Positions 13,001 to 57,200 of a DNA stretch of 64,000 nucleotides are shown in pieces. Both the position numbers and the translations under genes were made by a program. Within the stretch, counting starts at the first letter, position 1; each line of letters begins with the position of its first letter. The DNA comes from Bilabrum cf. latius (lineage: Eukaryota). The notes under the pieces were generated by a model. That model was not told the DNA's origin, did no database searches, and saw only the letters and a program-made list of their open reading frames with translations. The stretch lies in contig OZ237775.1 in assembly GCA_965178125.1 (NCBI GenBank), positions 434,001-498,000 of the forward strand, given 5' to 3'.

Positions 13001-16000
13001 TGCTGGTGGATTGCCCGATCCGGCGATACCCAACCACGTCGGTGGGCGCGTTGAAAGGGGTGCTGCCCGCCCCCTTGTACGCAAACCTCTGGTTGGGCGC
13101 GCTCCTTTGACCACCCCTCGTGATCACATCAATGCTGAGGCGAAGGAGAACCCGCGAGTCCGTGTCATTGGCCTTGTAGGGCCACGGCTCTGGGACGAAG
13201 CACTCCACGGCAGAGCTGTCCTGCCACACCACGCTGGTGCAAGGCCGCCCGTCGACGTACACGCCCTCCACTTCCGTCTCGTTGAAGCCAAAATTCTCGC
13301 CAAACACCAGGATGGACTCGCCCGGGCCCGCGATGTTGGGCGACACGGCGGCAACGACGGGGTCTGCAAGGACGTCCAAGAGCTCGTTCTCCTGGCTGCG
13401 TTGCCCCTTGGCGACCAGGACGACTTCGGAGTTGTCCCAGCTGCTTGAATTCACTCCGACGCACCGGACCTTGCTGCTTGAGATCCACTAGATGGATTCG
13501 CACGGATTGCCACCGACAGTGACCGCGTCGATATCTTCAGGCCCGGAGCCGAGCTCGCTCCCCTGGACGATGAAATCGCTCTTGATATCCCCCATGAAAG
13601 CGTACGACGGTTCCAAGGTGGACACAATCGGGGCCAAATAGGAGAATACCCCGTTGGGTGGGGACCGCAGCCCACCCCGTGTCAGCACGTCAACGGACAG
13701 GGAGCTACCCGCACCCCGAGGCGCAGTGACGACGAGCGTCGTCGAGTCGACGTAGCCCACCTGTGGCACTACCTTGCCCCCGAACACGACGAAGATCACG
13801 TCGTCCGGCTTCTCGCCGAAATTGGTACCCTTAATGGTCACGATGCTGCCGCCCTGCACCGACCCCAGAGCTGGCGTGACGAATGTCACGGTAGGGGTGC
13901 CAATTGCGACCACCGCGCTGGAGGTGGTGCCAATGGAGCTCTGGCCTGCGACGGTCACCCGCATGTTGTACTGGCCGCCGGACAGCTCGGTCGCGTTGAG
14001 CGCTTCCACGTTGCACGTGATCCTGCCTGATGATCGCAAGGCTGCGTTCGTGCAAGCCAGGCTGACCTTCCCGCCGCTCTGGCGGTTGGCCACCAGCCCG
14101 ACGGCCTCAAGCTTGCTCACATTCGTGCCAAAACTCGCGCCTTCGATCGTGAATTCCAGCTGCGCCTCGCCGAGGAACACAGTGGGCGGGTCAACGTAAG
14201 CGATGCTTGGTCTAGAGTACCTCCACAACCGCCGGGACTCGCTGTCGTACCCGCCGCGCGCGTGCACCTATACGCTTAGCTGCGAACCGACCCCGGGCGG
14301 CGTCAGCACAGTGATGGTGTTGCGGTCAATGACTCGGAATGACGGGCAAGGAACCCCGCCGAAAGACACCCCAGTAACGTACGGCCCATCCTGGTCTACT
14401 GCTGCGAAGAAATCGCCGCGCACTGTGACGTTCGTGCCCCCAGCGGCAGCGCCCAAGTCAGGCGAGAGGGAGTCCACCCGTGGACTGGCAAAACCCTCGA
14501 AGGCAGACTCGAAATACAGCGGGGCCGAGTACGGAGTCGACACCTCCACCCCTTCGGCAGGCCAGTCACCTACGCCCGATAGTGCGCACCTCAGCTCGCC
14601 GCTAGACACCACTGCCAGATCCGTGCAGGCGTACCCGCCCACGCGCACGGCTGTGATGTCGTCAAGGCTTTGAGCGAGGTGGCTACCGAGCACGGACACG
14701 GTGACGTCGCCCACACCAGGGACAAGAAAGGCAGGATCCACGCGGGACACTGCTGGCATCGCGTAGCTGAATACTCCACCGGTGGATAGGAGACCGTCTC
14801 TCCTCTCCACCACGAGCTTCAGCGACTGCCCGGCCCCAGGAGGCACCCCCACCTCGAGCAGCTCGTCCGAAATCCAGCGGAGGGACGCCTCCCTGGTATC
14901 CCCAAACCACACGCTACTAACATCCCCGGGCCGCACCCCGAAGGCACGGCCTGTCACGTTGATCTTGTACCCTCCGTCGACGGCGTTCACGCCTCCGGGG
15001 GCGTCGCTGGTTACCGACGTAACTTGCGGCTGGGCGATGGGACGCAGAAGGCCAGCGCTCCTGGATCGCTGACCTGCCACAGACACGACGATCGCGTTAG
15101 AGAACCACGGTGCGCTGGCCCCGACGCATCGGGCTTGCGTGGGCGAGATCCAGGACGCCGAAGTGCAGCGCTTCCCCCCGATTTCGATCCAGTCGACGTC
15201 GCCGTCCTGCATGCCCAGCTCTGTCCCAGTCACAGTGAAGTTGTAGTCCACGCTGCCCGAGAGTACTTGCGCGGGCTCGATTGCCCTGACTGAAGGCTGG
15301 CTGTACGAGAACAGGGCGTTCGCGGGCGTGCGCATGCCCCCGCGAGTGGTGACCTCAACGGAAAGCAGGCCACCAGCACCCGGCGGTGCGACGCACTCGA
15401 TGGTCAGCGGCTGTCCCGGAGTATCAGCTGCAGCGACGGTGAAGTTGAGGCATGGGTTTCCGCCGATGGAGACTTCGAGCACGTCACCTGGCTGCTCCCC
15501 GCAATCAGCGCACACAACCGTCTACACATCTCCGCCGAGGACTGCACCTATACCCGGATTCACAAGGGAGATGCGCGGCTGTCCGTAGATGCGGAGCACT
15601 TCGACCACGCTTGTCTGGCCGCCAGCCAGCTCAAGCTCCACTGCATCGGAACTGAAAGCAGTCAGATTAGCACCTGGCACCGTGCACACGGCCGATTCCG
15701 ACGAAATCCACGTCGGCTATACGCAGGGCTGCCCGCCCACAGTGATCGTTTCAAGATCCTCAGTCTGCTGTCCGAACGAAGAACCGCGCAGCCGCACCCG
15801 CAGGTCAGCTGCCTCCACGCCCGCGGCAGGCTGAAACACGTACGCCGGGTCTGTGCTCGAGATGACCGGGTCCTCATAGGAGAAGAGGGTATTCGGCTCG
15901 CTCGCAAGACCCAAGGCGTTCACCACCTGCACGTTCAGACCCGCCCCAGACCCCTCAGGCGTGATACAGAAAAGCCTATCTTGAAGCACCTGGCTGGCGT

Positions 16001-19000
16001 CAAGGTCTTCGCAATCGTATCTTCCGATCTTGACGACTGAAACGTCGTCTGCAACGCGGCCAAAATTGGTGCCGATGATGGTGACCCGCTGCCCACCCCT
16101 CTACAGGGCCCGCTGGAGGCTGACGGACAGCACCTGGGGCTGACCCACGAAGGTGAATGTGCCCGTGGACGTGGTGCTCTGCCCGTCCAGAGATACTTTC
16201 ACGTCTGCGGAGGACCACTGCGATGGGTCTAGCCCCCTGCACCAAACCTCATCCGAGGACGTCCGCTCCACGGCCGCGCAGTTCACGCCAGCCACCTGGA
16301 TCTCAGGCATTTGGTCCGATTGGTTGCCAGAGGCGATGGAGTCCCCAGTAATCTATACATCGAGGGTAGTGCCATCCTCCGGACCCGACAAAACATAGTC
16401 AGGCTGCACCGTGCTCACGCGCGGGGCCTCGTAGCCGACAAGAGGGGCGGCTTCGGACCGCAGGCCGAGGCGATTCGTGACCACGACGTCAGCAGAGCGA
16501 CCAGTCCCTGCAGGCGCAGTGCACTTGAGCTGTGAACCACTCAGGTGCCACAGAGGCTCGCACGGTCGACCACCTATCGAGACCGACGCAACGTCCCCAA
16601 CTTTGCGGCCAAACGCCACGCCATATACAGTTACATTCGCGCCGCCCGCCGTGCTGATCACGGCCGGCGATGCACCCGTCACCCGGGGTACCTGCACCAC
16701 CTCCAGCAGCGACTGGGATAGAGACGCCTGACCCCTCAATGAGATCTCCACCGCGGACCCCTGCCAGCTCCGCGCGCTCACGTCGTGACACACCACCTCG
16801 GTGTCGTTGACGACAGTGACGCGGGTGCACAGCGCGCCTCCCAGAGACAGCCCCTCGGGTGCCACGGCCGAGTCTCCCAGGTGAGCGGGTACGGCAAGGT
16901 TCTATCCCCGAATGGTGAAGGTGTAATTTGCGGGACCCGTCAGCACGTAGTCTGGCTCCAATGCAAGCAGCACCGGAGCGTCATACGAGTACAGCACCTG
17001 GCCGAGGCTCTCGGTGCCCACGCTGCTGTAAAATCTCACCGGGAGCGATTTGCCGGCTCCTGGAGGCGCCGTGCAGGTCACCCGGCCCGACGATTCGAAC
17101 GCCACGCCTTCGCACCGCCGCGCTCCGATCATTACCCTGTCCACGTCTTCGAGTCCAGTCCCGAAGTTGGAACCCGACACTGCTACCGAATACCCGCCGG
17201 CGGTGCCGCGCTCGGTAGTTGTGGCTGCACGCAGTGTGGGGACCCCAAACACGCGCAGCACTGCGCTGGAGGAGCCGTCCTGGGATCCAGTCCTGACCTG
17301 CACCAGGCTTGAGCTCCAGCTCTGCTTCCCGCTCATCTGGATGCACTTCAGGGCAGTTGAGTTCAGCAGGCGCACTGTTGGGCACACCCTGCCGCCGATA
17401 ATAACCTGGCTTGGGGCGTCAATGTCGTTGCCGAAGTGCTCCCCGAATACTGTCATGTTGTACGAGACATCACCAGAGAGGACGTGGCTTGGCTCGATCC
17501 GAGCGATTACAGGCGCCTTGTACCCAAGCAGCTGGTCCGATGTGAACGATAGACCGGCCGACTGCCGGAGCTGCACGCTGACGGACTTGCCAACCCCCTG
17601 CGGTGACACGCAAGTGATTTCGGTGGGCGACTAAACGCGCACGTCCGTGCATGCCCGGCCACCGATTAGCAAAGACGAGATGTCGGCGTCTTTCTGGCCG
17701 AAATTTCCGCCGAACAGTCGGATCGTCTGACCGCCCTTGACGTCTACAGAGCGCGGTAGCGCGCCACCGATGAATGGCTCCCCAAAGCCTTGAAAGACCC
17801 CACCTGTCAGCGCGCTCTGTCCTCCCACCTGCAGTCTGGCGGCGCTGGACAACCAGTCCCCGGCTGGTGCTCGCACGGTGCAGTTCACGGCGGACGAATT
17901 GATCACAACGAGCTCGTTGCAGTTGATCCCTCCCACTTCGACGGAGGTAGGCAGGTCCATAATCGTGCCGAGGTTGCTGCCCACTACGGTGAACGCGACA
18001 TCCCTCACCCCGGCCAGCGCATAGCCCGGCGACACCGCGCTGATGGCCGGCGCCAAGTATCCGAACAGGCCCTCGCCGCCGTACGTGATGGTTCTAATCC
18101 TGAGGTCAACTGACGGGCGCGCCCCAACTCCTGCGGGCACGGTGCAGTTGACCCAGGTGGCACCAGGATCCCTCGTCACACCGGTGCATTCCCTCCCGCC
18201 GATCCGAACGTACTAGATGTCCGAATCCTGCACGCCAAGGTTCTGCCCCACGATAGAAAGAGTGTACCCGCCGTCCACGGAGCCGACCTCTGGGACCGCC
18301 CCGGTGATGGAGGGCCCGTCCTTGACCCTAAACACGGAGCTGGTCGCCGTCTGGCCCTCGACCGTGACCACGATGCTGCCAGAGGAGAATCCCAGAGACG
18401 CATTCACGCCCCTGCACTGGACAGCCGACGAGTTGAAGAAAACGATGTCGAGGCAGGGGCGGCCGCCCAGCGACACTGCGCTAGGTTGCAAGCCCAGCGA
18501 CTCGGACCCCAAGCCTGACCCAAACAGCGTCATATCAAACACGCCAGAGAGAGGCGCTTCGGCCGGGACTGTGCGGAGTACCGCAGGCCTCTGGAACGAA
18601 ATCAAAGAATCAGTCGATCCCTTCAATCCACCGGTGGTTTCCACCGCCACGGCCAGGTTAGCACCGCCACCGCCACTGAGCTGACACTGGATGGTTTGCG
18701 ACGACTGTCCCTGAGGCAGCGCCATGTCCTACAGTTCGGGTGACGTGCAGTTGAACCGTCCCACCGTCACTCGCTTGATGTCAGATGTTCGCTTCGCGAA
18801 CGTACCGTCGATCGAGACGGTGCTGCTCGACCCCGTCCGCAGGTTGCCGCTTGTTGACCGCGCTGCCACCACGACAGGAGCGCCAAACACCCTGACGTCA
18901 GCTGACGTGGTCGCAGTAGTGTTCGAAAGCGTCACACCAACGTTCCATCGGCCTGTGGATAGTCTAGTCGCGTTCACCCGGCAGGACAGCTTGGTGGAGG

Positions 19001-22000
19001 ACAGCCAATGGGTCGACATGCAAGGTACCGTTCCTAGCTTGCCAAGAACAGGCGCCGCCAGCGGAGCCGAAGAACCGAACCCGGTACCCGTGATATTAAG
19101 CACTGCCTCGCTACCAAGCTGGCTACCCAGCTGCAGCTCAGTGGGCTGCACGGATGCGATTGCCGGCACGGTGTATCCCAGGCTGGTGGAGAGGCTAGCC
19201 GACTGGCCACCGACGTTCACGGTGATGCCAAGGTCGAGACCTATTCCAGCCGGAGTCACACACACAAGGTCCGTGGAGGATTGCAGCGAGATGCTCGTGC
19301 ACGCGCTACCGCCGATGGAGACAGAGACTGAAGCAGGACTCCCGCCGAAGTTAGTACCGATGATCTTGACGCTCGTGCCTCCTGCTTGAGAAAGTCTTGT
19401 AGTGGTTTCCACGATAGTAGCCGAGGACAGGGAAGGGGCCTGGTAGCCCACCCGCACCACCCCTTTGGCCTCCAGGCCTGCATATCCCGTGCCAATTGAC
19501 AGCAGTCGGGGAGCGCCCACACCTGCGGGCAGCGACACGCTCAGGGCAGTGTCCGAGGTGCGGGTCACGGAAGAGGCAGGTACGAGGCTGTTCCCGAGGT
19601 ACACGGCAGGCTTGGATCCGGTAGTGCCGAAGTCCGTCCCAGCTATGGTCAGCGTCTTGGAGGACCCATCGGCTGGCAGTACGATCGCCTGAGAGGCACC
19701 TGCAGATCGAGTGGTGGCCCCAAAGGTCACGCTGGATAGCGCGGGGGCAGACACGTTGTACACGGACACAAGATGTCCCGCCTGCACCCATGAAGCGCTG
19801 GACAGTCCCTTGTTGTGCCAGTCGTCGTCCGCCTGCGTGTCCACAGAGGCCAGGTGAGCCCTCGAGTCCTCGCTGCCGTCGATCGAGGTGGAGGCCGTCT
19901 GCCCGCCCACCGTGACGGACACGTGGCCCACAGGCCCGTTGCCCGCAGGGGTGGTGCAGGTGATCTTGCGGTCGCTTACCACGGTCACGCTGGTGCAGGC
20001 TGTCCCGCCGACAGTCACGGTGACATCCGTGCCCCCGGCCACAGCGACTGCCTGGTTGGTGGCCCACTTGGTGGACCCGAAGTTGAGCCCGCGGATGGTG
20101 AGGGTCTGTCCCCCCGCAGCGTCCCATCCGTCCCCTGTGGTGGCGTTGTGTCCCGAGGGAAGAGACACGGCGTGGATCTCGGGCGCGGCGTAGCTGAACG
20201 AACCTCCGCCCGACTCAGTCAACTGGCCAACCTTCACCTGCACGGCATGCCCTGTCCCGATACCATCTGGGACGACGCAAGTGATTGAAGTGTCACTATT
20301 TGCGATTGTCGATACGCAAGGACGCCCGCCAACAGCTGCGACCGCCGTCTCCGTCGTGTTGAACCCCTGGCCCGTGATGCTGATGTTGTACTGGAGGGCG
20401 TCATCGAGCTTGTCCTCGGTCGCGTTGGCCCAGCGGCGGGCAGCCGGCTGGGTGGAGGCCCAGCTGGTCACTGAGTGCTGGCGGTACGACACCGCGGAGG
20501 CCCTTGTGAAGGTTCGCCCGTCCATCGTCACCTGCACGTCGAGGCCTGTCGCCGTGCCGGCTGGCGTCGTGCACTCCACTATGACGGTGTCGGCCGAGCT
20601 GGCGCTGCTTCCCGTGTACGATTCCACGCTGCAAGAAGTGGCGGATGCGGTACCGATTGTGGCGGTGACTGTCCCGGTTGTGTCGATGTCCAGGGAACTG
20701 GATCCCATGGGGGCAGATAGCGTGATATCTACGGTCTGACCCCCTGCCCTGTCGAGGTCAGAAGAGGGCGACACCGTGATAGTCTTTGGATTGCGGCAAA
20801 CTGCATCGCTGCTGAAGGCCACGTTGTCGGCGTTGTCGGGCACGGATGCTGTCACCTTTGACAGGCCAGAATAGGAGATCACGCCGTCAGTGTCACCGCA
20901 GGACTTCCCGCCCAAGTCGCAGCTGCAGCTCGTCCCGCAGCGGTAGCTGCCTGACTGCACGGACAGGCTGGTGCTCTCAACCACGTACGTCTTACTGGCC
21001 GCAGTACCGCTGTCGTACTTTCGGAAAATGATCCTCCCGCCGCCGCCAACACTCTCCCTGCCGTTTGTGAGGGGCCGGTTGTGGGATGTGCTGGTCCACT
21101 CATTGCCGGAAGCAGGAGTCGAGTACCCCCCCCGCGCCCTGAGGCGAGCCTGCTTGGTGACGATGACGTCGTAGCCGCTTTTAACTTGGAATCGTAGCAT
21201 GCCGCCGGCGCCAGCTCCCCCCACGCCGCCGAAATAGTTCCCAGCGCCATCCGTCACAAACTCCGTGTCACCAAGCACAATGTCACCCCCCTGGGCCTCA
21301 AGCTCAATAGCACCACCGCCCGCACCTCCATGAGCTGGTTTGCAGTAATCCGTTAAACTACTAAACTGGCCAGCGTGTGAAATTCGCTCGTAGGAAGTCC
21401 GGATGCTGTACCAACCACCGGCTCCGCCGCCTCCACCCCCTCCGCCAACGAGATCCATCGTGGCACTACCTGCAATGACAATTCAAATAAATAAATAAAT
21501 AAATAAATAAATAAATTAATTCATAAATGATCAGTTTATTACCCTGGTAAAACGAGGCGTGAGCTGTGCTGCATGCATGGTTGTATCTCACCATATGTGT
21601 CGCCGGCATCGCCTCCGTGCGGCGCATTTAAATCTCGAGACCCTTTTCCACCGAATGAGCCGCCGCCTCCTACCACACCGAATGCATGGGAGCTATCGTG
21701 ATCGGCTCCAAACTGCATATTTGATGACTGTGCGCCGCTAACTGTCGTAGGCAAGCTTCGGCCGTGAGGTGCAGCCTTTGGTGGTCTAGTTACGCTCATG
21801 ATGGCTTGTATTTGAGTGTAGCTGGAGTACCCTGAAGCTCTCTACCCGTTGAAGCCCCCAAGCCTTCCGACGTGAAACGTTTCATACGTTTCCCCGTTGC
21901 ATTGAATAGCTCGAGTAAGCGGCACGTGCGACGTCTCTTTGCAGTCTCTGTTGTGACCACTATCAAATTTCCTATATCCACAATCTGTACCCTATGATGC

Positions 22001-22342
22001 TGACAATGATATACTTGTCGGTAACGCAGTTGCATTGAAGACTCCACCATCTACTGTAATGGAAGACTTGGAAACGAGGCGGATTGCCCGTGAACCGCTC
22101 ATTGACACGGAGACGCCATCCCCGATAAAGATGGCATCAAACTCGTACTCTACGTAATCATTACCATTGTTTACAACTGTCGTGCCAGTCGCACAAGTGG
22201 CGTCTGAGCAAGCAGTGGCTGCCGAAGAATCGAACGAGATAGAATCCGACGTGGAGCAGCAGTACAGGCTATCGGTGCCGTCCGAATCGAAGCATCCAGC
22301 GAATGCAACTGATATTCCAAACAGTATCTAGAGGACAAGCAT
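10005..22342 (-). CDS. Giant surface protein, paralog A (~4,070 aa): signal peptide, Gly-rich N-domain, ~25-30 IPT/TIG repeats, FN3, Cys-rich module, multi-TM C-terminus; exons 22342-21592 and 21469-10005
   Basis: All minus-strand pieces from 21458 to 10005 share one frame, broken only by TAG (15 counted in the gene), and end in TGA. The N-terminus MLVL*ILFGISVAFAGC is signal-like. Repeats follow GG..VTI.G.NFG...V.VGG..C......C..P.G.G. FN3 shows YWFRVRAEN.AG. The Cys-rich part is CAACPPGAYC..GYWR. The TM region contains YWESVVALRK and PY...LN.LE. Confidence 0.85.
10281..10846. repeat. Near-identical inverted tract shared with 34083-34648 (TM region of the two paralogs)
   Basis: Ungapped reverse-complement match with few substitutions; both encode RLFTCIEIGG...YLLSPSVGQ. 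Confidence 0.9.
11700..12196. repeat. Near-identical inverted tract shared with 32772-33268
   Basis: Both encode PDLVLNAPEIEG...FWVA; identity is highest over 11884-12196 / 32772-33084. Confidence 0.9.
12474..12698. repeat. Near-identical inverted tract shared with 32351-32575 (Cys-rich module)
   Basis: Both encode NMVTEACHAGQF...GVELD. Confidence 0.9.
19409..20201. repeat. 793-bp near-identical inverted tract shared with 24806-25598
   Basis: Ungapped reverse-complement match with only a handful of substitutions; both encode SFSYA.PEIHAVSLP...SSATIV. Confidence 0.92.
21470..21591 (-). other. Spliceosomal intron (122 nt, phase 1) containing a (TTTA)n microsatellite
   Basis: Minus strand G|GTGAGA...TTGCAG|GT. 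Splicing joins GDAGDTY-G-SATMDLVGGGG in frame. The AAAT repeat is at ~21485-21516. Confidence 0.85.
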
Positions 22343-22661
22343 TGTACTCGCTAGAATCGCAGGAATGTGGCAGCTTTGGCGAGTACTTGTGCTTGCCTTG
22401 AGTTTGGAGACAATCAATAGTTTTTGTCTTCATCGTTTGTCCATTTCTCATGATGATTATTGTATCAAACAGAGAAAATTAATGCTACTATAGCATGCTA
22501 AAAGAAATTTATGACTTTATGTACCCTTGTATTGACAGTTCAAGCGCGTATTTTATCGCACGTTCTCCTTATCGTTGCACAGGTGCATCACCGCACCACA
22601 AGCGCATTTTAAAGATGAAGCAAACGCGCCGCGTGCCTCGCTGTTTCACTTTCTTCTACGA
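22343..22661. promoter_or_regulatory. Putative bidirectional promoter between the head-to-head IPT/TIG paralogs
   Basis: 319-bp AT-richer spacer between two divergent predicted ATGs. Function is inferred from position only. Confidence 0.55.
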
Positions 22662-35902: not shown

Positions 35903-36487
35903 GTGATTGCGCCGCGTGGAATGCTGTGTCTGTGCTGAGGTGGGTTGGATGGCAGCAGTGCTCAACTGTTGGTCGGGTGGGCTTGTTCTGGTCGAGGGCA
36001 TGCGTGACGTAGACACGAATGTCCCTCATGTGACTGGATCTAATTAAAAGATTGGATAGGAGTGTGGACTGGAAGTTTGCGGGGCTGTGTGACGCTTTGC
36101 TGCCGTCGGAGGCACAAAGTATATCGTGCAGACCGTGACCGATGATGCCAAACCGCTTGGCTACCTGCCGTCTGGCGTTGACGCTATCTTTGTCCCTTTG
36201 GATGGGCTGCCCGGTCAATTGATTCGGGCGGTCCGGTAGCACATCGCAGATTGTGACAGGTCGCCGCTTGAGTTCCATCTGTTGAAGATGTGGTCCTTGT
36301 GGACCTTGGCTCATCGTCGGGTTACCACCAGTGCTCTTTTTGGAACGTGCATGTCATTGATACACTTCTTGCTACTGCTACTGCTGCAGAGTCTTGTTTA
36401 TTTCGGCGAGCCACTGCCAGGCTCCGAGTCGTTCGACAATATGCATTGCCCGTACGTCACACCGCACTAAGCATCCAACCAATTCAG

Positions 36488-38083: not shown

Positions 38084-38642
38084 ATTGATAGTGTTCTGGC
38101 GATTTCTCACTCCCAAATGCAGCCATCGTACGCGTTGCTCTCCCGAAACCGTTGGACCTGCGATCTGGCCAGAAATGTTTCGATCTGAGTCTCCCAAGGT
38201 CGCGTGTTGGCGGAAGGTATGGCTCGCGAAAGGGAGGGAAGGGGGTGAAGGAATTGTACCGGCAAAGCAGACAGGGGCAAGTGCATTGAAGGATTAAGCT
38301 AGTGTTAAAGGCGTTACTAATTCCAAGAGTTACCAGCCGTGCGACCGCCGTGGTGACTGTCATGCCGCACAGCATACGGTGGCATTGGTTGCGACCACTG
38401 GAAAGATTAAAACCGGGCTTCAAACGTTGCTTTCTGAGAAAGGAGGAGTGCATTGACCATTATTATCGGCAGTACCAGTCAAGCATTCAGTTCACGGTTG
38501 AGCAAGTGATGCAGGCTGACCCTGGGCCCATCAATGAGCCGTCATACGGGAGACCGGTCGGGTTCAACGAGTTGCGTGCGATTCCTTGCATTAAACAGAC
38601 TCAGACACATCTGCGCAAATTCGAGCCTTTGCACCTGCCATT

Positions 38643-41280: not shown

Positions 41281-41952
41281 TTACAGCCCGCTCACCGCCC
41301 TACCCGCCGTGGATCGCCTCCTCAAGTTGCCGCTGGCGCTCGCCCCGGTCGCCTTCTTTCCCCTCTTAGACTTGCGCCTCCTCCGCCGACGGTTGTTGTT
41401 CGCCGTCCAGCCTGCGCCCGCCCGCCTGTCGCCCGCAGGCTCTTGCTGCTTCTTTAGGTATGCCCAGAAATACTGGGCCGACGCAAGCCCAAAGAAAAGC
41501 CAGGACAGAATCTGAACGCCAAAGCCGATCCCGTACCGCATTCGGTCGGAGCTGCCAACCGTGCCCGCTGCCCCAGCCGCCCATGATAATGAAACCAACA
41601 CGCCAAGCGCGACTGGCCCGGCTGGAACCAATACGGCCACAAACATCATGAAAGCGTTGCGCAGCAGGGTGTAGACCAAGATCGAGAATATCACTTCGAC
41701 AATTGCGGTGATTACCATCAGAACGGCAAACGTTCGAGCAGAAAATACAGCGGCTGACGGATCCAGTATGCCATCGCATCCGTCTGGTACAAACGGGACG
41801 TCAACTGTACAAATTCGCCAAAGCCCAGCAGTGACCTTGGCGTCGCCGATTTGAGAAATATTCCAGTCGTTAACCACGATCGCCACGATAGAACATACCA
41901 TACCAATAATTGAGGTTACTGTTCCTGATGTTGCGGACCAATGGAGAGGCAT
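41281..41952 (-). CDS. Claudin/PMP22/EMP-like tetraspan membrane protein (223 aa)
   Basis: Four hydrophobic segments, a W...GLW..C...C first-loop signature (NDWN..AGLWRIC..DGC), RYGIGF before TM4 and a basic tail. Ends in TAA. Confidence 0.75.
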   Translation of the reverse strand: MPLHWSATSGTVTSIIGMVCSIVAIVVNDWNISQIGDAKVTAGLWRICTVDVPFVPDGCDGILDPSAAVFSARTFAVLMVITAIVEVIFSILVYTLLRNAFMMFVAVLVPAGPVALGVLVSLSWAAGAAGTVGSSDRMRYGIGFGVQILSWLFFGLASAQYFWAYLKKQQEPAGDRRAGAGWTANNNRRRRRRKSKRGKKATGASASGNLRRRSTAGRAVSGL

Positions 41953-42292
41953 GGCTAGGCGTGTATTGCCTTGTTTTTGTGCAACGCTTTGCTTTTCGCG
42001 TGTGATCAGACTGCAGTGCAATGCAAAGTGCGACCACTGGGGTGGTCGCACAACAGCTAGGTGACATTTTCGGCTCGTTCAAGATTCTATCGATCCTGAA
42101 GTTGCTTTCATTGGGTTCATATTCACAACAGCACATATCTTGACAAGTTGGGGCGCAGTCTGCATCACCGGTTGAGGTTCCAGCTAATAGGCGACGGTTC
42201 CAAGCAGACATTTTGTCCAGGCCGCGCCTAGCCGGCAGTCCGCGCATTTGCTTTCCGCAGCTCCATCAGCCTAGATTTCTCACTAAGATTGC

Positions 42293-45200: not shown

Positions 45201-48200
45201 GGACCAAGACCGCGCTCATTCGAGCGCAGATGCGCGGGGAGCTGTCAGCTCCGATGCAGGATCTTGCTAGGAACCCCGACTCCACGCAGCCTCAGCTGCC
45301 CCTCCGTGGCCCAGTAACGATGGCATCAGGTAGTTTGCTAGATAGTAAGACAGGCCACTCAGTGGGCGATGCAGCTGGAGCTTCCGGTGCGCACAGCCCG
45401 AAGCTCGGAGCTGTGGCCCCGCCGACCCACAGCGGCGATATGCCGTCGAGCACGTCACCTATCTTGCACACGCGAGGAATCCACGAATCAGGCTCCCATG
45501 GATCCGGTGGAGATTCCAAGTCGCATGCATTAGAAGAAAGTAGCACAGGCAGCGGCAAAGGCCACATGAAGAAGAAATCAAGCATGGCGTGGCAGGCGAT
45601 CGCAGCGGCTGCGCTGTCATCACCTGCAGGAGACCCTAATACCGTGGATCCCGTCTCTGGCGACCCGTTGGAGCCTGCCGTTGGCAGCGGGGAGCATGTT
45701 ATGCCCGAGCAGCACTCGGCTGCAGCCGAGGCCGTGATCGAGAAGGTGTTCACACAGGCTCTTGCCAGGAGCCGGAGCAGGCGGGACAAGGACGGCCGGT
45801 CGAAGAGCAGGAGCAAGAGCAGGGGCAAGCATGGAGAGGATGATGCGCAGGTGTCATTTCGAGGATTGCAACGCGGTGGGTCATCCAAGCGAAGCGTGGG
45901 CACTTCAGGTACCGCCAGCTCCCGACGAATGGGTACTTCAAACAGGTCTGTCGGCACCGGCTCAGAGCGAAGGATCGTGGGTAACGCCGCGGGATCATCC
46001 CGTAGCCAGTACTTGCGCGACCACGCCAGGAGAGTGGGCCAGCAGCAGAAAGAGGCCAGGAGGGCCCGCGGCAATTCGAGGCGGCCGAACAGTGATCGCA
46101 CCGATGTGGGAGGGCAGCAGGGCCAGGTGGTGGCCTGGCGAGATTCTGGCGGAACAGAGTCCAAACGGGCCGACACGGCCGGCGTGCAGCGATCGACCTC
46201 ATCGGCAGCCAACACAAAGCAGTCTAGTGGCCGCTCAGGCCTCGACGAATTGACCGCGGGGCCACAGCAGCAAACCAGCACGATTGCAAGACTGGCTCGA
46301 ATCGGGCTGGAGGACGACGCCGACACCAAGATGAAGCACGCAATCAGGCACAAGAGCTCCGTGTCTCCCCGGACAGCGAATTCGGGAGGCCTGCCAACCA
46401 CACCACAGCCGGGAGTTCCCATGAAGCTGCACGGCCTCATCGGAGCCAGGCCCTCCATTACGGCCGGCCGGCCACCGCCACGGCCGATCGACACGGGCAC
46501 TGCCCCCGAATCTAACCTTGCAGATGCTCTCCTGGCAGCGGGGTCAGCAGAGGGCCTGATGACGCCCGGCATGGCGCTTCAAGCGATGCGCCGGGCTGGA
46601 TTCCAGGAGGAAGACCTGGATCACCCGGACCACCCCATCCATTAGTAGACGGGCAGCAGCACCCTATCCATCGCAAGGCACGTTCTCATGATGCAGCGGT
46701 GGCAGCAGCGGGCGCAGCAGCGGGCTGAGCAAGAGGCCAACGATGTGCATGATCCTACTACGATGGGGGCACTCATGGGATCAACCAACCGGGGCGTGTC
46801 CCCTCCGAGTGCAGCGCATGGTAGCGCCCAAGCACCAAGCGTGGCCCAGGCCTACCATGGCCTTGATTCCGTGCATTCCCCTCAGGCGACTGCCAGGCAG
46901 ATTATGATCCCTGTGGGCAGGGGCAGAGCGCAAGGCAGGTTGCCTACGGTGCCGAGTCACCGCAGCGCCAGCGCCGGCACAGGTGTCGTTGCCAGCGACC
47001 CGCGCCCTTCACGTGGCGGCCACGCACAATTCGAAACGGCAGGGTCAATGCACCATGCGGGTGCCGAAGGCCCTGTCTCAAGGCACAGGTCACAGTCAGT
47101 GGATCTGACTGCGTCGCGAAGCAGTGCTGCAGGGCCCGAAGCGGGCAGCACCGCGGGAATGCTGGATCCTTCGCAGCCTGTGCCCGAGGACATTTTCCGC
47201 ACGAAGATGCAGGGCCTCCCTGCCCCGCTGACGGCAGGGAACGGCCTGCAGCGGACTGCTACGAGGCCCGGTGGGAGACTCATGGCTGTCCTGCGCAGGC
47301 GCACGCTTCGGGAGTAGAAGAGCAAGAAGCATGATAGGGGGGGCAGGAAGCTGAAGCTCGCGCCTGAGACAGAGAAGATCTACAGAGACCTGCGCAGAAA
47401 AGCCAACACGCTGGTCTCGAAGGAGCAAAACGCCGCGAGCAAGGGACTCGGTAGCAGGCGTGCCTCATTCGCTGACGGTGTCACCGCAGGACTCCTGGGG
47501 GCACGTGAGTTGAGGGAGCCAACGGGAGCAGGCGGGACAGCTGGACCCGCAGGAGGCTCTGAATCGGCAGCATCCAACGGTGCTGGCGCTAGTTAGCCAA
47601 CGACTCCGCAGAGACGCGTGTCATCGATCGATCTTGCAGCTTTAAAGAGACGCAGCGAAGCCAAGCCCGTAGCAAGGCGTGCCAGGCGCACATCGACAGG
47701 GTTCAAAGGAGGCATGCAGCAAGTGGCTGAGGCGCTGCAGGCCGAGGCAGAGGCAAATACATCCAGTGGGGGTGCAGAGGAGCATGATGGAGCACCAAGG
47801 AATGCTAAAAAAGACTCGAAGCTGCAGGCAAGCGCGGGCAGCATCCGGGATGCAAGCAGTAGCAAGCTCGGGTCACCCCCGCGGAGCTCACCAGCCACTG
47901 ATTCGAAGAAGCCGATCCATGCCACAGGAGTACCTGGAGCTGAGGCGCACCGGCAGTTGTCTGCGAAAGCCACTGCACAGGTCCTGGACATTTCCACTGA
48001 TGCGGATAGCCTTCTCAGTGGGGAGGGCAGGCAAGCGGGCGCTTCACCCTCCCCCAGCATCGGTCGCGGTGTGACTGGGCCTGACAGTAAACATAGTGCA
48101 CATCGCCCCGCCGGTCTGGTTCAAGACGAAGCCCCATCGCGGGCGTCGGCCGGGTCCAGGCAGCCTCGCGTGAGGATCGTCGAATCGCCGGACAAGGGGT

Positions 48201-51200
48201 CCCAAGCCGCTGCGAGGCACGGTTTCTCCAAGGAACGCTCGGGTGCTTCCTTCCCTCCGGTGTAGCTGCGACCGGTCCAGTCCACCGGTGGAGCCACGCC
48301 AGCACTGCCACCCACCCGATCTCAGCATGCCCCCATGCTGGGTCTGTTAGGCAGGGGCGGTCGCTCGGACAGCTCGCGCGATTTCAACAGCAGCTCGTCC
48401 GGTGGCAGCTCTCAGCGGAGTTCGAGACGGGCGAGACCACTCAAAGCAAAGAAGCCGCCCAAGGACCTGCGAGCCGCCGATGCGATCATCTTCCACCAGG
48501 TGACGCCCTCTCTCGGCTGCTGCGAGTGGCTTCGGCTGTGGGCGCTGAGGGTGGTGGCGAGCGGTCCGTTCGCGGCAACGATCGTTCTGTTGATCCTAGC
48601 GAACGCTGCTGTGCTGGCGCTGGAGCAGTATCCCATCGTGCCGCGGCGCCAATCGATCGCAGAGATGATCAATTTCGGCCTGTCTGCTGTGTTTGCAGTA
48701 GAAATGACGCTCAAGATGTACGCGCTTGGATTCGAGGCGTATTTCAGAGATCGCTTCAACGTCTTCGACGCCGTGGTGGTGCTCGTGTCTGCCATAGAAA
48801 TCGCGATCAGCCCTCCTGATTTTCTAGTGGGGGGCGACGATGACTCGAGCGGCGGGGCCGCGCTGTCCGGTCTGCGGACATTTAGGATTGTGCGCGTGCT
48901 GAAGCTAGCCCGCTCGCTCGTGTCTCTGCGGGTGCTGCTGGAGACGATCTTGAGGTCTCTCCAAGACGTGGCTAACTTTGCGCTGCTGCTTTTCCTGTTC
49001 ATATACATCTTCTCTCTGCTGGGGCAGTTCCTGTTCGCGAACCGCTTCCGGTTCGATCCGCGGTCCGGGGACGTGGTCAGGCTCGGAACGGCTGGATTTG
49101 ACGATGCTGAGGTGCCCCGCGAGAACTTTGACAACTTTCTGTCCGCCTTTGTCTCAATCTTCTCGATTCTGATGGTTGAGGCATGGCCCTCGATTTTGTT
49201 CTCCGGTTGGAGGGCCTCCCGTGCCGAGACAGATGCCTTTGAGCTGATCGCCGTGCTGTACTTTGTGGTTGTCGTGGTGGTCGGCAACCTGGTGTTGCTC
49301 TCTCTCTTTCTGGCCATCCTGCTGTCCAACTTCGAGGGGCTGGACGAGGAGATGGCGAACGCGGCGGAGCGGCTCCGTCGGAAGGCGCTGGGCACCAGCA
49401 AGAAGAAGAAGAAAAAGAAAAAAGGGCCTAAGGGCGGCGATTCAGTGGGCGGCAGTGGAGGCTCCTCGGCAGGTGGCGTGCCAATTTACTCAGAGGATGA
49501 CAGCAACAGCGGTTCAGACGACACAGATGGGTCTGTCGCGATGCCGTTTGATCCAGCTCTGCTGAGTTCCACAGAAAGCGAAGAGGAGAGCGAAGAAGAT
49601 CAGTTCCTGGAAGACCTGCAGAACGCCCCGTAGAGCTCACGGAACGGGCTATCTGCTTCGAATGCCTCTAGCCGGTGGTTCTTCTAGTCCAGGAGAGACC
49701 AACTCCTTGGTGCCCAACGGTCCGGTGCAAGCATAGGCTCGCAGCGATCGACTCCTCTGGGCATGCCGGGCCCGCCTGTCGTAGCTAAATCGCTTGGAAT
49801 CGATGGGTAGTCTGTAGCCAGTGGCGGCAGATCCATCGCCAGCAGCGGAATCGGTACACGAGGCCGCCGCACTTCCCTTATTGACATGCGAGGGGCTACT
49901 GGCACGGGCTTAATACGCAGCCAGTCACCAGCGGTGGGATCCCGAGCCAGCCCAGCCTTCCTGCGCAAGAAGCGGTCCATGCGGAGCAACGCCTCCTTCC
50001 GGTCGAATTCCTCAAAGGGCAGCAGCAGTCAGGTGGCCGAAGCCATGGCAGCGCTGAAGAAGGGCAAGTCCGGCAAGAACCTGCTGCGGAAGCGCATGTC
50101 CCACACCAACGCGCAGATGAACCAGCTACTCGCGAAGAGATCCTTCCGCTTCAAGAAATCGCACGCGGCTCAGAAAGAGGAGCAGCGCAAACAAATGATG
50201 GCGCTAGATGCTTTCGGATCGCCGAACGAGTCGAGGCAGGGCAAAGCCCCTCCCTCGCTCACCAACTCGCCGCCGGACCAAAAGAGGCGCCTGCGAGGCC
50301 CGAGCCCCTCCGCGAGCGACGGACACAAGAGCGTCAAGGACGGGCGCGGCTCCAGACAGGGGGCGATGGACACGGAAGGGTCCATCCAGCCCTTCGATAT
50401 GGAGGGCTTCGTGTCTCGGCCAGTGGTAGTGCGAGCTGACTCAGGTCTCAAGCCCTAGATGCTGGTTAGCAGCGGCATAGGCGCAAGCGCGGGGCAGCAT
50501 TCCACCGACCAGCCAGCCAACGACGCGGGAACGGTGAATTCCTCAGAACTCGGCAAGTCTGCGGGGGACGATGGTTCGAGCAGCGGCGCTGGCTCCCGAG
50601 CCACAGCACCACCTGTCAGTGGTGCCGCAACATCCAAGAGCAAGCGGGCCTCCCGAGTGGCAGGGTTGTTCCTCAAGGCACTCGGCAACGCCGCCATGAA
50701 GAATTCAGCCGAGTCGGGCACGCCTGCTCCGGACAACGAGACGCCATCTTCAGCAGCGAGCGGTGCCCTATCCAGTTTCGCCCGTCGCAAGAAGCGCATG
50801 AGCTCCCTCAAAGACGCCGCCAATGCCATCCGAATGGCGCAGCGTGCCACTAGACGGTCGGATGCCAAGCGCGACAGAGGAGCCTCAAAGAGCAACATAG
50901 CATCGATCGTTTCTACTATCTAGGCGAGACAGGAGGGTAAGAAACGGACGTGCCAGTACTACACGGGCAAGTTCCTCCGACGGGTGTGGAGGAACGTGAG
51001 AGGCACCGTGATTGGTATGCGAGACCAGAACGCTGTGTCGGAATTCATGTCTCGCCTAAACAGCATCAAGTAGCGATTGGACGATAAAGCCAAGGCAGTG
51101 TCGCCCACCAAGCAGGCCACCAAGCAGGCCACCACTACCTCCTTCCGAACAGACGGCAGCGGGACCGGCACAGCAGTGGCTGTAGGGACTGGAGCCGGCC

Positions 51201-54200
51201 GGCGGGCGCGACCCTCACCAGCCGGTGCGATCGAAGGCCCAACCAACACATCGTCCAACCTAGGCATGTCGGCTCTGACGTACGGCAGTGCGGGCTCAGC
51301 AGCAGCCAAGCAGGGCGCAGGCGCTGGGGCAGCCTCCTAGGATGCGCCGAAGAGCATCTTACGGAAGGGTGGCAAGCGCGCCTCTACGCACGCAGACAGC
51401 CCGTCCCAGACACGAGACACTCGGCTCAACGCCTCGGGATTGATGGCCTCGCCTGATCACTCCCAGAATGGAGGTGCTGGGCTGCATGGCGTGCCTGCAA
51501 GCGCGATGAAGCCCACGAGTGCATCAAAGGTGGACGCAATGTTCAGCCCCGAGGCGGCAAAATCGGCTGCACGTGATGCTTCTGACCCATACAGCAACCT
51601 GAGGGCATAGACGGCTAGAAAGCGCGCGTCAGATGGTGGGGTGGCTGCGGGCAGACGGCGGCGATCAAGCGCGGTGCGACACGACTTGCTGTCTGCTGCA
51701 CACGTTGGCGATGCCGATTCTGGCTCGACGGGCGGTGCTGCCGCCGCTGCTGACGGCTTGGAAAAAGTCGGGGCTGGCTCCTCCAGGCAGCGCCGTGCAT
51801 CTGCAGTCGCTCGGTTGTCCAGCACCGGGGGTCGACAGAGGCGGGGCTCGATCGCCCGCCGCTCCCGCAGACCCAGTCAGGTGGAGCAGCTGATTGGAAG
51901 GCTGTTCGCGGGCGGGGCTGCTGCAGATAACGGTGCGGCTGATGATGATGCGGATGCGCTTGGTACAGAGCAAGAGGCTTGGCGCGGCATTCAAAAGCGA
52001 ACGATGGAGAAGAGGAGGAAGCAGAAGCAGAGAGAGAGGCAAGCAGAACGGAGACGAGTGAACGAGGTCACAATGGACCCAGAGGTTGAGCGCAGGCTGA
52101 AAACCATGGAGCTGGCGCTGAACGCGCACAAAGAGCACACCCGCATGACCTGGCTGGGCCGCGATCGGGCAGAGCAAGCAAGGTCCCGGCAGATGCGCCG
52201 ATCGCTTGGCGGACCGACCGACCAGTCAGTGCCGGGCCAAAGACTTGGCAACGTAGATGACGAGCACAGCACGAACAGCCAGCTGGCAATGAGGCTGAAC
52301 ACCGGCGGCTTCGGGTCGTCCGGCCAGGTATCCGCTGGCGTTGGTGCCAGGGGCGGTCGCGATTCCCGAGGCAAGGTACGGGGGCAGCGCAGACCGACTA
52401 AGGAACGCAGGTAGTCACTTAACGACCAGGTGCTTCTGATGGACGCCATGCCCTCCAAGAGACCCATCCCGGCTCTCGGGCTGCTGGCTCCCAAAGACAA
52501 CCAGCTGCCCTCCGTCCGAACGCCGCTGGGCAGCGCCGGGGCCCGTGTTGGACGAGGCAGAGAGGACTTGCACCGCCACCCGAAGGGTTCTGTCACCACT
52601 CGAGCCGCCAACGCAAAGGGCGGCATCAAGGGTTCTCTGTTCGGGTTTGATTCGGATGTGGTCGACGAGGTGATTGGGATGGATGATCTGCACGCTAGTA
52701 GTCGACACAGCGATGCCAGCAAGGGCAAGAGCTCCAAGTCCGGTGGGGGCCGTCGCTCCGGGTCTGGGTCTCGGGAGCTCTCGGGCACGCAACACGAGTC
52801 AGGTTCGAAGGGCAGTTTATCTTAGGCAGGAAGCGTGGTACCAGACTCCGGCTCGGTGCAAGAAGGGAAGATGCCATCGTCCCACCTAGAGGGGGCAGCT
52901 CTCGATGCGTGGCAGGATGTGAGGGAGGGCGAGGCACGCCGCCAGAGACGCAGCTCCAGAGGATCAGCAGAGCGATCCCGCAGGAGCTCAAAGGGCAGCC
53001 AGAGGTCTTTTGCCAGCAAGCACAGCGCCAAGCTGCCCACGCTCGAGGAGGCAATGCAGTCCTTCCCGTACAGGTCTGCAGCCGGCCGCATCACGCGGGC
53101 GCCATCACAGAGCTCATCGATCTTCGGCAAAGTGTCCGGCCCGCATACCGACATCGGTGTCGCGCCCGCCCGCGGGAGACAGGTTAGCGCTCCCCCCGCT
53201 CAGCGAACGAACCAAGGGGGTGATGCAGGGGATCATGACAGGCGTCCGTCAGGTGCTGGCACACGAGGCACACAGGGCACACGAGGCACACAGGGCACAC
53301 GAGGGTCGCAGTCCAGGCGAAGGAGCCGCAACAGCTCCAGCCTGGACGGAACAAAGGATTCGGAGCTGAGAGCAACTGCACAGGCTGCGGCCGTGGCTGT
53401 AGCCGATGCGCAGGCGAAGAAGCTTCTACGAGAGGCATCCGAGGCCGGCGTGAGAGTCAGGCGCCACAGCTGTCCCAATGCGCTAGACCGCGGCCTAGAG
53501 CGGTTCGGTCGCGACGAGATGCACAGGAAGGGGTACGTTCTCACGGAAGTCCCGCCCCCACTCAGTGCAAAGGTATCCGAAGTGGCTGGTGCCGAAACCG
53601 CCTCGCAGCTTGCTCCCGGCCACAGGAGGCGCAAGCCATCCGCGTTCAGCAGTGCTAGCAGGGGTGCGCTAATGATGGAGCGGCCGGGGGAGCCTGGGGC
53701 AGGCATATCGTCTCTGGACTCGCGCAAACTGGCAGGCGCTGCAGCCGGTGGTGCTGCGACAGGCGTACTGCAGTCAATCGGCGAGGGTGAAATCCTGCCA
53801 GCTGGGACGAGTGTCGCTGAGCTTGAGGCCAGCTCGGCTGGTGCGGTACCGGCAGAGGCAGCCCGTGTCAGCATCGCCGACCTGCGATCGGGCAGAAAGG
53901 ACTAGTGGTCTACCAATCGTGGTATGCACCGCGTGCAGACATTCAATTCCCCTGCAAGGGTGCGCCAGCTGGCACGTCAAGAAGGGCGGGAGGCTCTAGA
54001 GGGCGGTCTACTGGGCCGATACCAGGCGAGCGGTGCTGGACAGCTGGCAGCTCGTCGTACCGGTCAGGCGGCCCCCCGTCGGTCGAAAGAGGGCAGGGGG
54101 ATGCGAAGGGTGCCAAGCGCACTGCCAGGGGGGCTGCGCATGGGGAAAACGTCGTTTAGTGCCGGTTTGGGCGCCGCCCGGGATGGGGTGCAATCTACGC

Positions 54201-57200
54201 CACGCTCGGGCGTTGGCTCAGGCAAGCTGCGGCCGGCAGAGGTCTCTGTGCTTAAGGCGTACGGTGGCATCGATGCTTCACCCTCTACCTCAAAGACGCC
54301 GCTGCGATGGGGCTGGAAGAAGGCACAGATGAGGCAGAGCAAGATCAAGCAGCACAAGGCCAAGCAGATGTCACACAGGCACCTGGACACGGGCGGTGCG
54401 GCCGGCGCTGCCAGTCGTGGTCGGCAGCTGAGTGCCCTGGAGCAAGCCAACCTCAAGCGAACGAGCACAGGAGTGCCGGGGACCTTTATGGCGGGAAGCC
54501 GCACCCGTCCCAGCGCAGGGGGAGGCAGGCCTTCGCCCAAGGAACCAGTGCCCAGGGCCTTGCAGATCGGTGCCGCCGAGGGGATGGCCCATGCCAAGCG
54601 AGACCGTGCATTCGGAGCCAACAATGCCGTGGCTAAACAAGCTGCAGGTACTGTCCTTGCGAAAGATTCGTTCATCGAAGGCCTCAAGCGTGTCGAGTCG
54701 CCAGCCACGAGCGATGCCGCGCCTGCCTCTGCCGATGGCAGCGGCAGTGTGACTGGACTTGTGGGCGTGGACACGCTCGGGCGACCTACTGGAAGGGCAG
54801 TGGAGGGCCGCAGCGTTGCCTCCTCGGGTTCCGGTAGGCCCCCTGCCGGGCCCCATGGGCATCGCCGTGCCACCCACGAAGGGGGTGCAGCGCAGCACCA
54901 CGAGCATGTTGACGAACCCGGGGCATCGGCTGCCCCTGCTCAAGCAGCAGTTCACAAGCATGCCCCGCTCCAAAGAAACCTATCGCAGAAGCAAATGAAT
55001 TTGCTGCACGGGATTCGGGGTGCTCGTGCACCTATAATGTCGGAGCATGACGCAGAGGAGCGGATGCGCCACATGGAGTCCGACAACCTGCGCCGTCAGA
55101 TGCACGGGATCGAGCATGGGATGGACGCGATCCTGGGCGACGAGGAGGAGAACCAAGAAGGTACGGGCTCCGGTGGGGAGGGCAGCTCGGACGTTGAGTC
55201 GGACGACGACCACTTTGACCAGGTGCTGGATCTCTTTGATCTGGAGCACCCTGACTTGTGCAGGAGGACGAGGCAGAGGGCCGTGACGTACCTGGCGCTG
55301 TGCTGCGGATGCGTGACCCAAAATGAGGTGGACCGTATTGGGCAGGAGGGTGAATATGCCGAGGAGGGGGGTGACCAGGACGAGGACAAGCCATCTGCTG
55401 GGGCTGGAGAATCGGGCGGGGGCTACTGCGGCTGCTGCTGTCGGGAAGCACGAGGAGGACCAGGCAGCGGCAGTTCCTCGGTAGCCTCGCCAAATGTGTC
55501 CCCAGCGATGCGAGGGAACAGGGCCACTGCCACCGTAACCCCAATGGCTGCTGTCAAGCAGGGTAGTCTGCACTCTGATCAGCATCAGAAGCAGCAGCAC
55601 TTCACGTTTGCTGGTCCAGCGGCAAGGTCCAGCGTGTCCGGTACACCACCGGCTGCGCTCGTGGCTGCAACGCCCAGGTCACCTGCGCGGTCTCCGATGC
55701 GGTCGCCATTGCGCTCCCCTGCTCGTCGCAACCGAGGCATGCGAAACTCAAAGACTTCGGCAGACTCCGCCGCTGCTGCACTGAAAGAGGCCTTCGGAGA
55801 CAACGGAGGGGCACCACCCTCTCCAACCGCGAGACGCGCCACTGTGCAGGGACATTCTAGGGGGTCCAGCTCTACCGCTCACTCTGTTGATATCGGCGAG
55901 GCTGGATAGGGCAAGGGTAACGAAGACGGTGACGATGAGGAAGACACGGATGCGGGAGAGCTGGATCTGGCAGCCAAGCAGGAGCTTGCAGTGGCCTCTG
56001 TGTGCCCGGGCTTCTTCTCCAACCGGTCGCTCTGCCTCTTTGCCCCCCATGACAGCGTCCGCAGGCAAGCAGTCTGGATCGTGTCCCAGAGCTGGTTCGA
56101 TAACACCATTCTGGTCCTCATCCTGCTTGCCTGCGTGGTGCTGTCTCTCGACTCACCCCTCCTGGATCCGGCCAGTCGGCTGGCCAGCGCCCTAACGGCC
56201 ATCGATCTGGCGCTGACGTTCATCTTCCTCGCCGAACTCATCATCAAGGTGCTCGCAAACGGACTCATGTTTGGCTCCATCGCATACCTGACCTCGGCTT
56301 GGAATTGGCTTGACGCCAGCCTCGTTGCGATCTCGCTCTTTGCCCTGTCTGGCGCAGCTTCGACGAACATCAACAGCCTCCGGTCGCTTCGGGCGCTCAG
56401 GGCACTTCGGCCACTGAGGGTTATCAACAGGAATGAAGGTCTGCGGGTGGTGGTTAATTCTCTATTCCGCGCCATTCCCTCTATTCTCAACGTGCTCGTC
56501 ATCCTCGTGCTGTTCCTGTTCATCTTCTCGACTGTCAGCGTCAGCTTCTTCAAAGGCAGCTTCGACAACTGCACGGGGCCTGTATTTGAGGCCCTTACGG
56601 ATGAGCAGCAGGACCTCGTTGTGAATCCGCGCCCATTCAACGACTTGACGCCTGCAGAACAATCGTGGGCGGCCGACCCCGTCAATCGGCCGTCCTTCCC
56701 CAGCACCAACCCAACGTCCAAAGATGTGTGCCTGTGGCTCGCTGCGGACTGGGAGCCAACGGTGCCGCAAAACTTTGACAACGTCGGCAACGCGATGGCC
56801 ACCCTTTTCGAGCTCATGTCGACGGAAGGGTGGCTCAACATCATGTACGCCGGTGTGGATGCCCGTGGGATCGAGATGCAGCCGGTGCGCGACTACCAGC
56901 CCCTCTGGCAGCTGTACTTTATCGTGTACATGATCCTCGGGTCGCAGCTAGTCATAAACCTGTTCGTCGGTGTGGTCATTGACGCGTTCAGCAGATAGAG
57001 GCAGGAGCAGGGGGAGAACTCGCTGCTGACAGAGTCGCAGAAAGAATGGGTTGCCACGCAGGAAGCCATGCTACAGGTACGACCGAAGCGAGTGCTGCGA
57101 CCCCCGCTGGACCCCACCCGCAAGAGCTTATTTTACCTGGTGCAATCTCAGAACTTCGAGATCTTCATCATCGTGTGCATCATCCTAAACGCGATCGTTA

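Follow-up and report, generated by a model that had tools for sequence, protein, structure and literature searches.

Genes and reading frames of the window

The window analysed here is a 64,000-nucleotide stretch of DNA (positions 434,001 to 498,000 of contig OZ237775.1, assembly GCA_965178125.1, deposited as Bilabrum cf. latius) with a guanine-plus-cytosine (GC) content of ~60%, which under the standard code is filled with runs of abutting open reading frames (ORFs) that fuse into giant frames as soon as TAG is read through. The reading developed below is that TAG is a sense codon in this organism, about which there can be practically no doubt, that TAA and TGA have been kept as stops, and that the amino acid inserted at TAG is probably glutamine. 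The giant ORFs obtained by TAG readthrough are 2,496, 3,825, 4,154 and 5,452 codons long, with known domains inside.

The first of these ORFs (P0004; 629..8119, minus strand) combines kinase-like and SIR2_2 domains, has 19 in-frame TAG and stops at a TGA (629-631). The next two encode paralogous membrane proteins with IPT/TIG repeats, arranged head to head: paralogue A (main exon 10005..21482, minus strand), with 17 IPT/TIG matches and 11 in-frame TAG ahead of a TGA stop, and paralogue B (23438..35902, plus strand), with 16 matches and 16 in-frame TAG, which closes at a TAA (35900-35902) followed 12 codons later by a TGA. Both probably possess an upstream exon. The one assigned to A, solely by paralogy, encodes a signal peptide and an N-terminal domain (21539..22429, minus strand; three in-frame TAG), and the one assigned to B lies head to head with A (22536..23825, plus strand; one in-frame TAG at 22719). 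While A and B are 49% identical overall in a global alignment, they share long near-identical stretches, for example near A residues 400-690 and in the membrane region at the C-terminus. These stretches are devoid of TAG and suggest gene conversion.

The longest ORF (42287..58645, plus strand; 24 in-frame TAG, stop TGA) encodes a four-domain voltage-gated cation channel with Ion_trans and GPHH domains. Three of its TAG precede the second and third candidate ATG starts, and another, in the linker between domains III and IV (56996..56998), was cited in the original prediction that TAG encodes glutamine in this DNA. The unusual length of this protein is due to low-complexity I-II (~1,300 residues) and II-III (~2,100 residues) linkers, and domain I has a very large extracellular loop. 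As read from the translation, all four domains have a Glu in the pore loop, at what we take to be the selectivity position, which suggests a Cav-like, not Nav-like, channel with Ca2+ selectivity.

Three shorter frames lie between paralogue B and the channel. A glycoside-hydrolase-like gene (36272..38083, plus strand; one in-frame TAG at 37721, stop TGA) has no Pfam match and owes its label to what is presumably a resemblance in motifs. A purple-acid-phosphatase-like gene (38595..40325, plus strand), with TAG 39147 in a variable stretch, contains downstream of its conserved GHVHNYQR motif ~100 codons of non-homologous sequence, probably an intron that is read through in frame. Finally, an ORF with four hydrophobic stretches (41281..42078, minus strand; no TAG, stop TAA) is read as a putative claudin/PMP22-like membrane protein.

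Two spliced genes complete the inventory. The RPB4-like gene (58813..60241, minus strand), which has the highest contig depth in 42287-62286, contains GT..AG introns of 87 and 90 bases (59850-59936 and 60022-60111), a TAG in exon 3 (59759) and a TGA stop (59540), and shows that introns exist in this organism, though the adjoining giant genes have none in their main ORFs. The WD40 gene (60392..63999, plus strand) runs off the window, has nine in-frame TAG in exon 3 and is spliced at joints 60703>60794 and 60986>61154 (GT..AG introns of ~90 and 167 bases), the unspliced start at 60751 in the ORF list being therefore wrong. Its label, RBBP4-like, rests on the likeness that its N-terminus, once spliced, presumably bears to the N-terminal helix of RBBP4/Msi1.

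TAG read as sense, with termination at TAA and TGA

The code was counted in seven reading frames totalling 16,904 codons, each with Pfam domains or homologues, which contain 72 in-frame TAG but neither an internal TAA nor an internal TGA, against 100-115 TAG, 47-58 TAA and 320-344 TGA when this DNA is read in its two alternative frames. The spliced WD40 gene adds nine in-frame TAG to these 72. The chance of 5,452 codons without TAA and TGA, as in the channel, is about 1e-54. The seven frames end at TGA (five) or TAA (two), never at TAG, a sample too small to reveal context-dependent termination at TAG, and both TAA ends are putative, being placed by the end of the ORF. If TAA were a sense codon used at the CAA:CAG ratio, ~19 would be expected in these frames and none is observed (P=4e-9), while reading TAA through as well (NCBI table 6) adds no more than a few codons to the large ORFs. 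The common code in which both UAA and UAG (UAR) specify glutamine is thus ruled out, and since TAA is kept out of the frames, the change concerns UAG only, with TAA and TGA retained as stops. A UAG-only change to glutamine corresponds to NCBI table 15. The original prediction had rightly treated TAG as a sense codon but did not contain the exclusion of TAA, that is, the UAG-only nature of the change. TAG is a minor codon, which would represent 72/719 (~10%) of glutamine codons if it does specify glutamine, and the positions that it occupies are for the most part variable, polar, at the surface or in linkers.

A trivial explanation would be that these TAG are not translated, because the frames are pseudogenes or assembly errors, or because the codons are removed as tiny in-frame introns or altered by RNA editing of UAG. 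This is extremely improbable, first because the frames are interrupted by TAG alone, as the above statistics show. Moreover, eight run rows from four studies contain the stretch 24000-33900, and four runs aligned on 42287-62286 show no base differences, hence no strain variation at TAG codons in these four runs over this interval. Contigs of one run (X5) span 42287-58727 with 0 differences and 0 gaps, and one of them stops 82 bases past the TGA of the channel. Contigs from three runs (X5, X6 and X7) join over the two GT..AG introns of the minus-strand RPB4-like gene, and an X5 contig does so over the two GT..AG introns of the plus-strand WD40 gene, which indicates that these runs hold spliced transcripts. 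In these contigs the channel TAG are neither spliced out nor changed. No run with the sequence is listed as RNA, the transcript origin of the runs is a guess, and contigs may hide rare variants, which they drop. Together with the occurrence of the same pattern in relatives, the frame statistics and the unchanged contigs lead us to reject an artefact or a pseudogene.

These relatives come from searches with genes of the window. For the hydrolase, a close relative is represented by three ORF pieces, 90-94% identical, and one copy of each lies on a contig of a single size (4.7 kb). These are taken to be one and the same contig, which implies that in the close relative, too, the gene is interrupted by in-frame stops. 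A more distant orthologue (66% identical over 554 codons) is found at 291-1955 of a metagenome contig (L001; GC 54.5%), where its frame contains three TAG but neither TAA nor TGA before closing at a TGA, so that the same code change seems to exist in a clearly different organism. For the kinase/SIR2_2 protein, residues 480-1300 had no match among proteins of similar length, whereas the whole protein had one match among shorter proteins, a 95%-identical fragment (P0264) that ends exactly ahead of TAG 3104 of the window. Neither a metagenome scan with the channel nor a genome-collection scan with the hydrolase gave a match. In-frame stops in at least two relatives (one at 93-95% and one at 66% protein identity) indicate that, as far as can be judged from sequence, the trait is common to a lineage rather than peculiar to one strain.

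The amino acid inserted at TAG

The most direct evidence on the residue comes from paralogues A and B, in which the original prediction had picked out a few sites. These were reproduced: the TAG at 13488-13490 in A (CESIXWIS, where X is TAG) is opposite a Gln in B (CGSIQWVS, CAA 31553), the TAG at 29966 (VQVAGXSS) and 28310 (LVLDRXE) in B are opposite Gln in A (CAG 15069 and CAG 16728, respectively), and one aligned site has TAG in both paralogues (15522 in A, 29513 in B). The global A/B alignment contains 24 TAG sites that face a residue, this single TAG/TAG site and one site facing a gap. The 24 partners are Q (five), K, T, R and D (three each), F (two), and E, N, S, V and M (one each). Gln is therefore found at 5/24 sites, well above the 3.7% Gln content of A and B (P=0.0016), and this proportion matches the 23% conservation rate of ordinary Gln codons between the two proteins. 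Seven partner codons are one base from TAG, all of which differ at the first base (CAG three times, AAG three times, GAG once), and none is TGG, TTG, TCG or TAY. When BLOSUM62 scores are summed over the 24 partners, Q comes first with 11.0 bits, followed by K (6.0), E (5.5) and R (3.0), with L far behind (-21).

The same sites provide arguments against glutamine. Most partners (19/24) are not Gln; Lys is a partner three times even though Gln-Lys pairs are rare in A and B (just 3/213); four partners are hydrophobic (F, F, V and M); the three TAG in the upstream exon of A face L (TTG), G and G in that of B; and replacing BLOSUM62 with an empirical A/B substitution table puts Arg (12.2 bits) above Gln (11.2). 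It is here that a basic residue, Lys or Arg, finds support, Arg through this empirical table and Lys through AAG, which in addition to the three paralogue sites faces a TAG once in the metagenome orthologue, occurs where an ORF piece of the close relative ends, and is matched by the Lys opposite the kinase TAG at DFG+3 (the only solved match, and one more point against glutamine). TAG meaning Lys or Arg is nonetheless very unlikely, as both score poorly once all sites are pooled (-0.5 and -3.4 bits, respectively, against 14.7 for Q), the III-IV linker column of the channel has no Lys and just two Arg in 120 homologues, and the available portions of two papers (PMC11687900, PMC5304391) mention no nuclear code in which UAG specifies either residue.

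A second source of evidence is the repeat architecture of A and B, from which a double-TIG profile of 170 columns was built using 32 copies. The column richest in Gln (13/25 other residues) contains two of the TAG of B, and log-odds over 19 sites place Q first. Conversely, when maximum likelihood (LG+G4) is run on the 32 copies once per candidate residue, T, A and S rank above Q in the un-normalised values, which we read as an effect of composition since the order shifts upon division by residue frequency. More troublesome for glutamine are columns of a plainly aliphatic nature: the TAG site shared by both paralogues sits in column 74 (V11/I10/L8, that is, V, I or L in 29/31 other residues), and column 14, with another TAG, is also V/I/L. 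The repeats also bear on two comparisons of the original prediction. The TAG in IRGXNL, which had been set against Gln in IVGQNL, is in column 167, where none of the 21 other residues is Gln, and the IVGQNL copy, judging from its coordinates, belongs to the other TIG half of the repeat. The TAG in LSVXV, which had been set against Gln in LPVQV, is in column 124, where Gln accounts for 5/31 other residues.

The argument drawn from the III-IV linker of the channel does not hold among its nearer relatives. TAG 56996 does align with the second Q of the human Nav1.5 motif nfnqqkkk, as had been proposed, but it is opposite Cys in Cav3.1, and in a phmmer-based alignment of the best 120 homologues from a large protein collection (mostly stramenopile channels, 33-50% identity) the column reads M58, I27, L17, Q5, E4, V3, R2. 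With M, I or L in 102/120 homologues and Gln in five, this column speaks against glutamine at face value, and the site is neutral, providing no evidence for Gln. It is also one of the arguments for TAG being hydrophobic, either Leu (its meaning in the rhizarian exLh) or Met, a possibility to which repeat columns 74 and 14, the Leu and Val found in close relatives at TAG 37721 and the TTG opposite a TAG in the signal peptide of A also lend themselves. Yet none of the 24 paralogue partners is Leu, against an expectation of ~36% (P=2e-5), which rules it out, the pooled scores of L (-25.5 bits) and M (-20.3) are strongly negative, and there is nothing here like the Leu occupying 82/86 hyperconserved UAG sites in exLh, in the part of that study available (PMC5304391). 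A hydrophobic meaning is thus highly improbable, and the original argument against Leu, Trp and Tyr is borne out, Tyr and Trp never being partners either.

Other single sites vary in what they say about glutamine. Two further channel columns are enriched in Gln, at codons 759 (12/89) and 215 (8/81), and in the column of TAG 37721 Gln is the commonest residue of the hydrolase family (Q17, E12, A9 and L5 of 63). In weak alignments the residue facing the phosphatase TAG (39147) is Pro for one chain and Gln for a second, whereas the RPB4 TAG (59759) is outside the aligned block in the alignments listed and the WD40 TAG fall outside the blocks aligned to solved structures. The hydropathy of residues flanking 71 TAG sites gives no discrimination among candidate amino acids, whose scores are all within a few bits.

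Close relatives complicate the picture, as the residues that they have opposite TAG are scattered (Q, L/V, K and S). In the 95%-identical kinase/SIR2_2 fragment the residue opposite TAG 3188 is Gln. In contrast to what glutamine would predict, the two copies available for the hydrolase have Leu and Val at TAG 37721, the ORF pieces of the relative break off opposite Lys (AAG) and His (CAT) of the window, and in the metagenome orthologue two TAG face Lys (AAG) and Ser (TCG) of the window, with T opposite TAG 37721. Between relatives 93-95% identical (37721; P0126 and P0265), TAG-linked sites differ far above the 5-7% background, and TAG codons may sit at unusually unconstrained sites or turn over fast. 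These observations would also fit a loss of termination at UAG in which the codon had no dedicated meaning and was read by near-cognate tRNAs for Gln, Lys, Tyr, Leu and others, the resulting mixture being tolerated at unconstrained sites, especially since the partners in close relatives are spread over the one-step neighbours of TAG, and Gln and Lys are both enriched as partners. Such mixed insertion is, however, hard to believe in: Tyr (TAC/TAT) is never a partner, 72 TAG in 16,904 codons, including some in folded domains and at the site shared by A and B, would be costly without a defined reading, and a literature search found no such case.

All 20 residues were scored in a pooled tally of 34 sites, combining (i) BLOSUM62 scores for the 24 paralogue and three upstream-exon partners, (ii) pseudocounted frequencies in six external columns (three from the channel, one from the hydrolase and two for TAG of the metagenome orthologue) and (iii) the kinase match. 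Q is first with 14.7 bits, ahead of E (6.7), K (-0.5), R (-3.4), S (-8.7), T (-13.2), M (-20.3) and L (-25.5), and remains so when the repeat profile takes the place of the paralogue partners (Q 18.5, E 6.9, T 2.8). Gln thus ranks first overall despite its absence from most paralogue sites, and the Gln at TAG 3188 in the kinase/SIR2_2 fragment, which is outside the tally, gives it further weight. On the other side of the balance, the sample is small, as strongly conserved columns are few among the 34 sites, and roughly one site in four is opposite a hydrophobic residue.

The residue that comes second is Glu, which would be inserted by a tRNA-Glu with a CUA anticodon, as UAG is read in an uncultured ciliate (PMC10553269). 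Glu occurs commonly in the family columns of the channel and of the glycoside hydrolase, and its codon GAG is one base off TAG, but it is 8 bits behind Gln, a modest lead that varies with the choice of substitution table. Furthermore, it is a partner at 1/24 paralogue sites where ~20% would be expected (P=0.033), and the 95%-identical kinase/SIR2_2 fragment has Gln, not Glu, at TAG 3188. Glutamate is accordingly a very unlikely meaning. We would put the probability that TAG encodes glutamine at about 0.8, an estimate owed to the sequence comparisons above and in part to precedent, UAG having usually been captured by Gln in the lineages described in PMC11687900 and PMC5304391. The conclusion of the original prediction is therefore probably right, with Q best in the pooled tally and Gln in the 95%-identical kinase/SIR2_2 fragment, although the evidence offered for it was selective and its channel-linker argument fails.

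Origin of the change and comparison with known codes

These findings would best be accounted for if the window came from the nucleus of a microbial eukaryote, rich in GC and poor in introns, in which UGA and UAA terminate translation and UAG is a sense codon, most likely read as glutamine. By analogy with other lineages in which UAG was captured by Gln, as described in the accessible part of PMC5304391, a gene for tRNA-Gln(CUG) may have been duplicated and one copy mutated to a CUA anticodon. The release factor eRF1, on general grounds, would have lost recognition of UAG while keeping that of UAA and UGA. The window itself holds no tRNA (ARAGORN), has no Rfam match, and has no eRF1 among the frames of its 64 kb.

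As for the identity of the host, the best named homologues of the channel are from oomycetes, Albugo, Cafeteria, Paraphysomonas and Ectocarpus (40-45% identity), and in a FastTree phylogeny of 61 sequences the window channel groups with Cafeteria and oomycetes, with support of 0.925 for the wider clade and 0.3-0.7 inside it, for this one gene. The code would thus be a case of the known UAG-only kind in a host lineage that, provisionally, looks new for it. Literature searches at the level of listings and abstracts, which cover few subscription journals, gave no paper reporting a nuclear code change in stramenopiles. We tentatively propose, at somewhat less than even odds, that the window organism and its relatives (93-95% and 66% identity) form a GC-rich heterotrophic stramenopile-like clade in which UAG specifies glutamine while UAA and UGA are kept as stops.

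If true, no earlier nuclear code change would be known from stramenopiles, and one more independent uncoupling of UAG from UAA would be on record. Nuclear code changes are rare, and a split between these two codons is rarer still, with a handful of cases in the parts of PMC11687900 and PMC5304391 at hand. A new lineage, probably related to stramenopiles, would offer an independent origin with which to test how release factors and tRNAs evolve, and would show that GC-rich genomes are able to capture UAG. There is also a practical side: gene callers using the standard code shatter these genes, to the point that public proteins of the relatives are pieces of only 100-180 residues, and annotation, binning and protein catalogues of the lineage will therefore be wrong until the code is set.

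How does this code compare with those already described? Changes restricted to UAG are known in exLh (Leu), Iotanema spirale (Gln), Scotinosphaera (Ser) and Protocruzia tuzeti (Gln), as well as in phyllopharyngean ciliates, in which UAG alone went to Gln twice and also to Leu, as far as the available sections of the two papers go (PMC5304391, PMC11687900). The closest counterparts are the UAG-only Gln lineages, i.e. I. spirale (Fornicata), P. tuzeti and two phyllopharyngean lineages, for which changes of tRNA(CUA) and eRF1 have been described. As in these, only UAG is reassigned in the window, Gln is the best-supported residue, TAG is a minor codon and TAA closes 2/7 frames; unlike in these, the nearest named homologues of the channel are from stramenopiles, not ciliates or metamonads, and the DNA is ~60% GC. 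The resemblance to table 6 organisms (many ciliates, Dasycladales and other ulvophytes, hexamitin diplomonads, Streblomastix and Amoeboaphelidium) lies in a stop read as Gln, likely by a tRNA-Gln with a changed anticodon, but it ends with TAA, which is absent from the frames of the window where ~19 would be expected and whose readthrough hardly extends the ORFs. Finally, exLh is also a little-known protist with a UAG-only reassignment, which was discovered via in-frame UAG in transcripts much as in-frame UAG were the starting point here, and the two differ in the residue: against the leucines that dominate UAG sites in exLh, Leu is at none of the 24 partner sites of the paralogues and has a pooled score of -25.5 bits.

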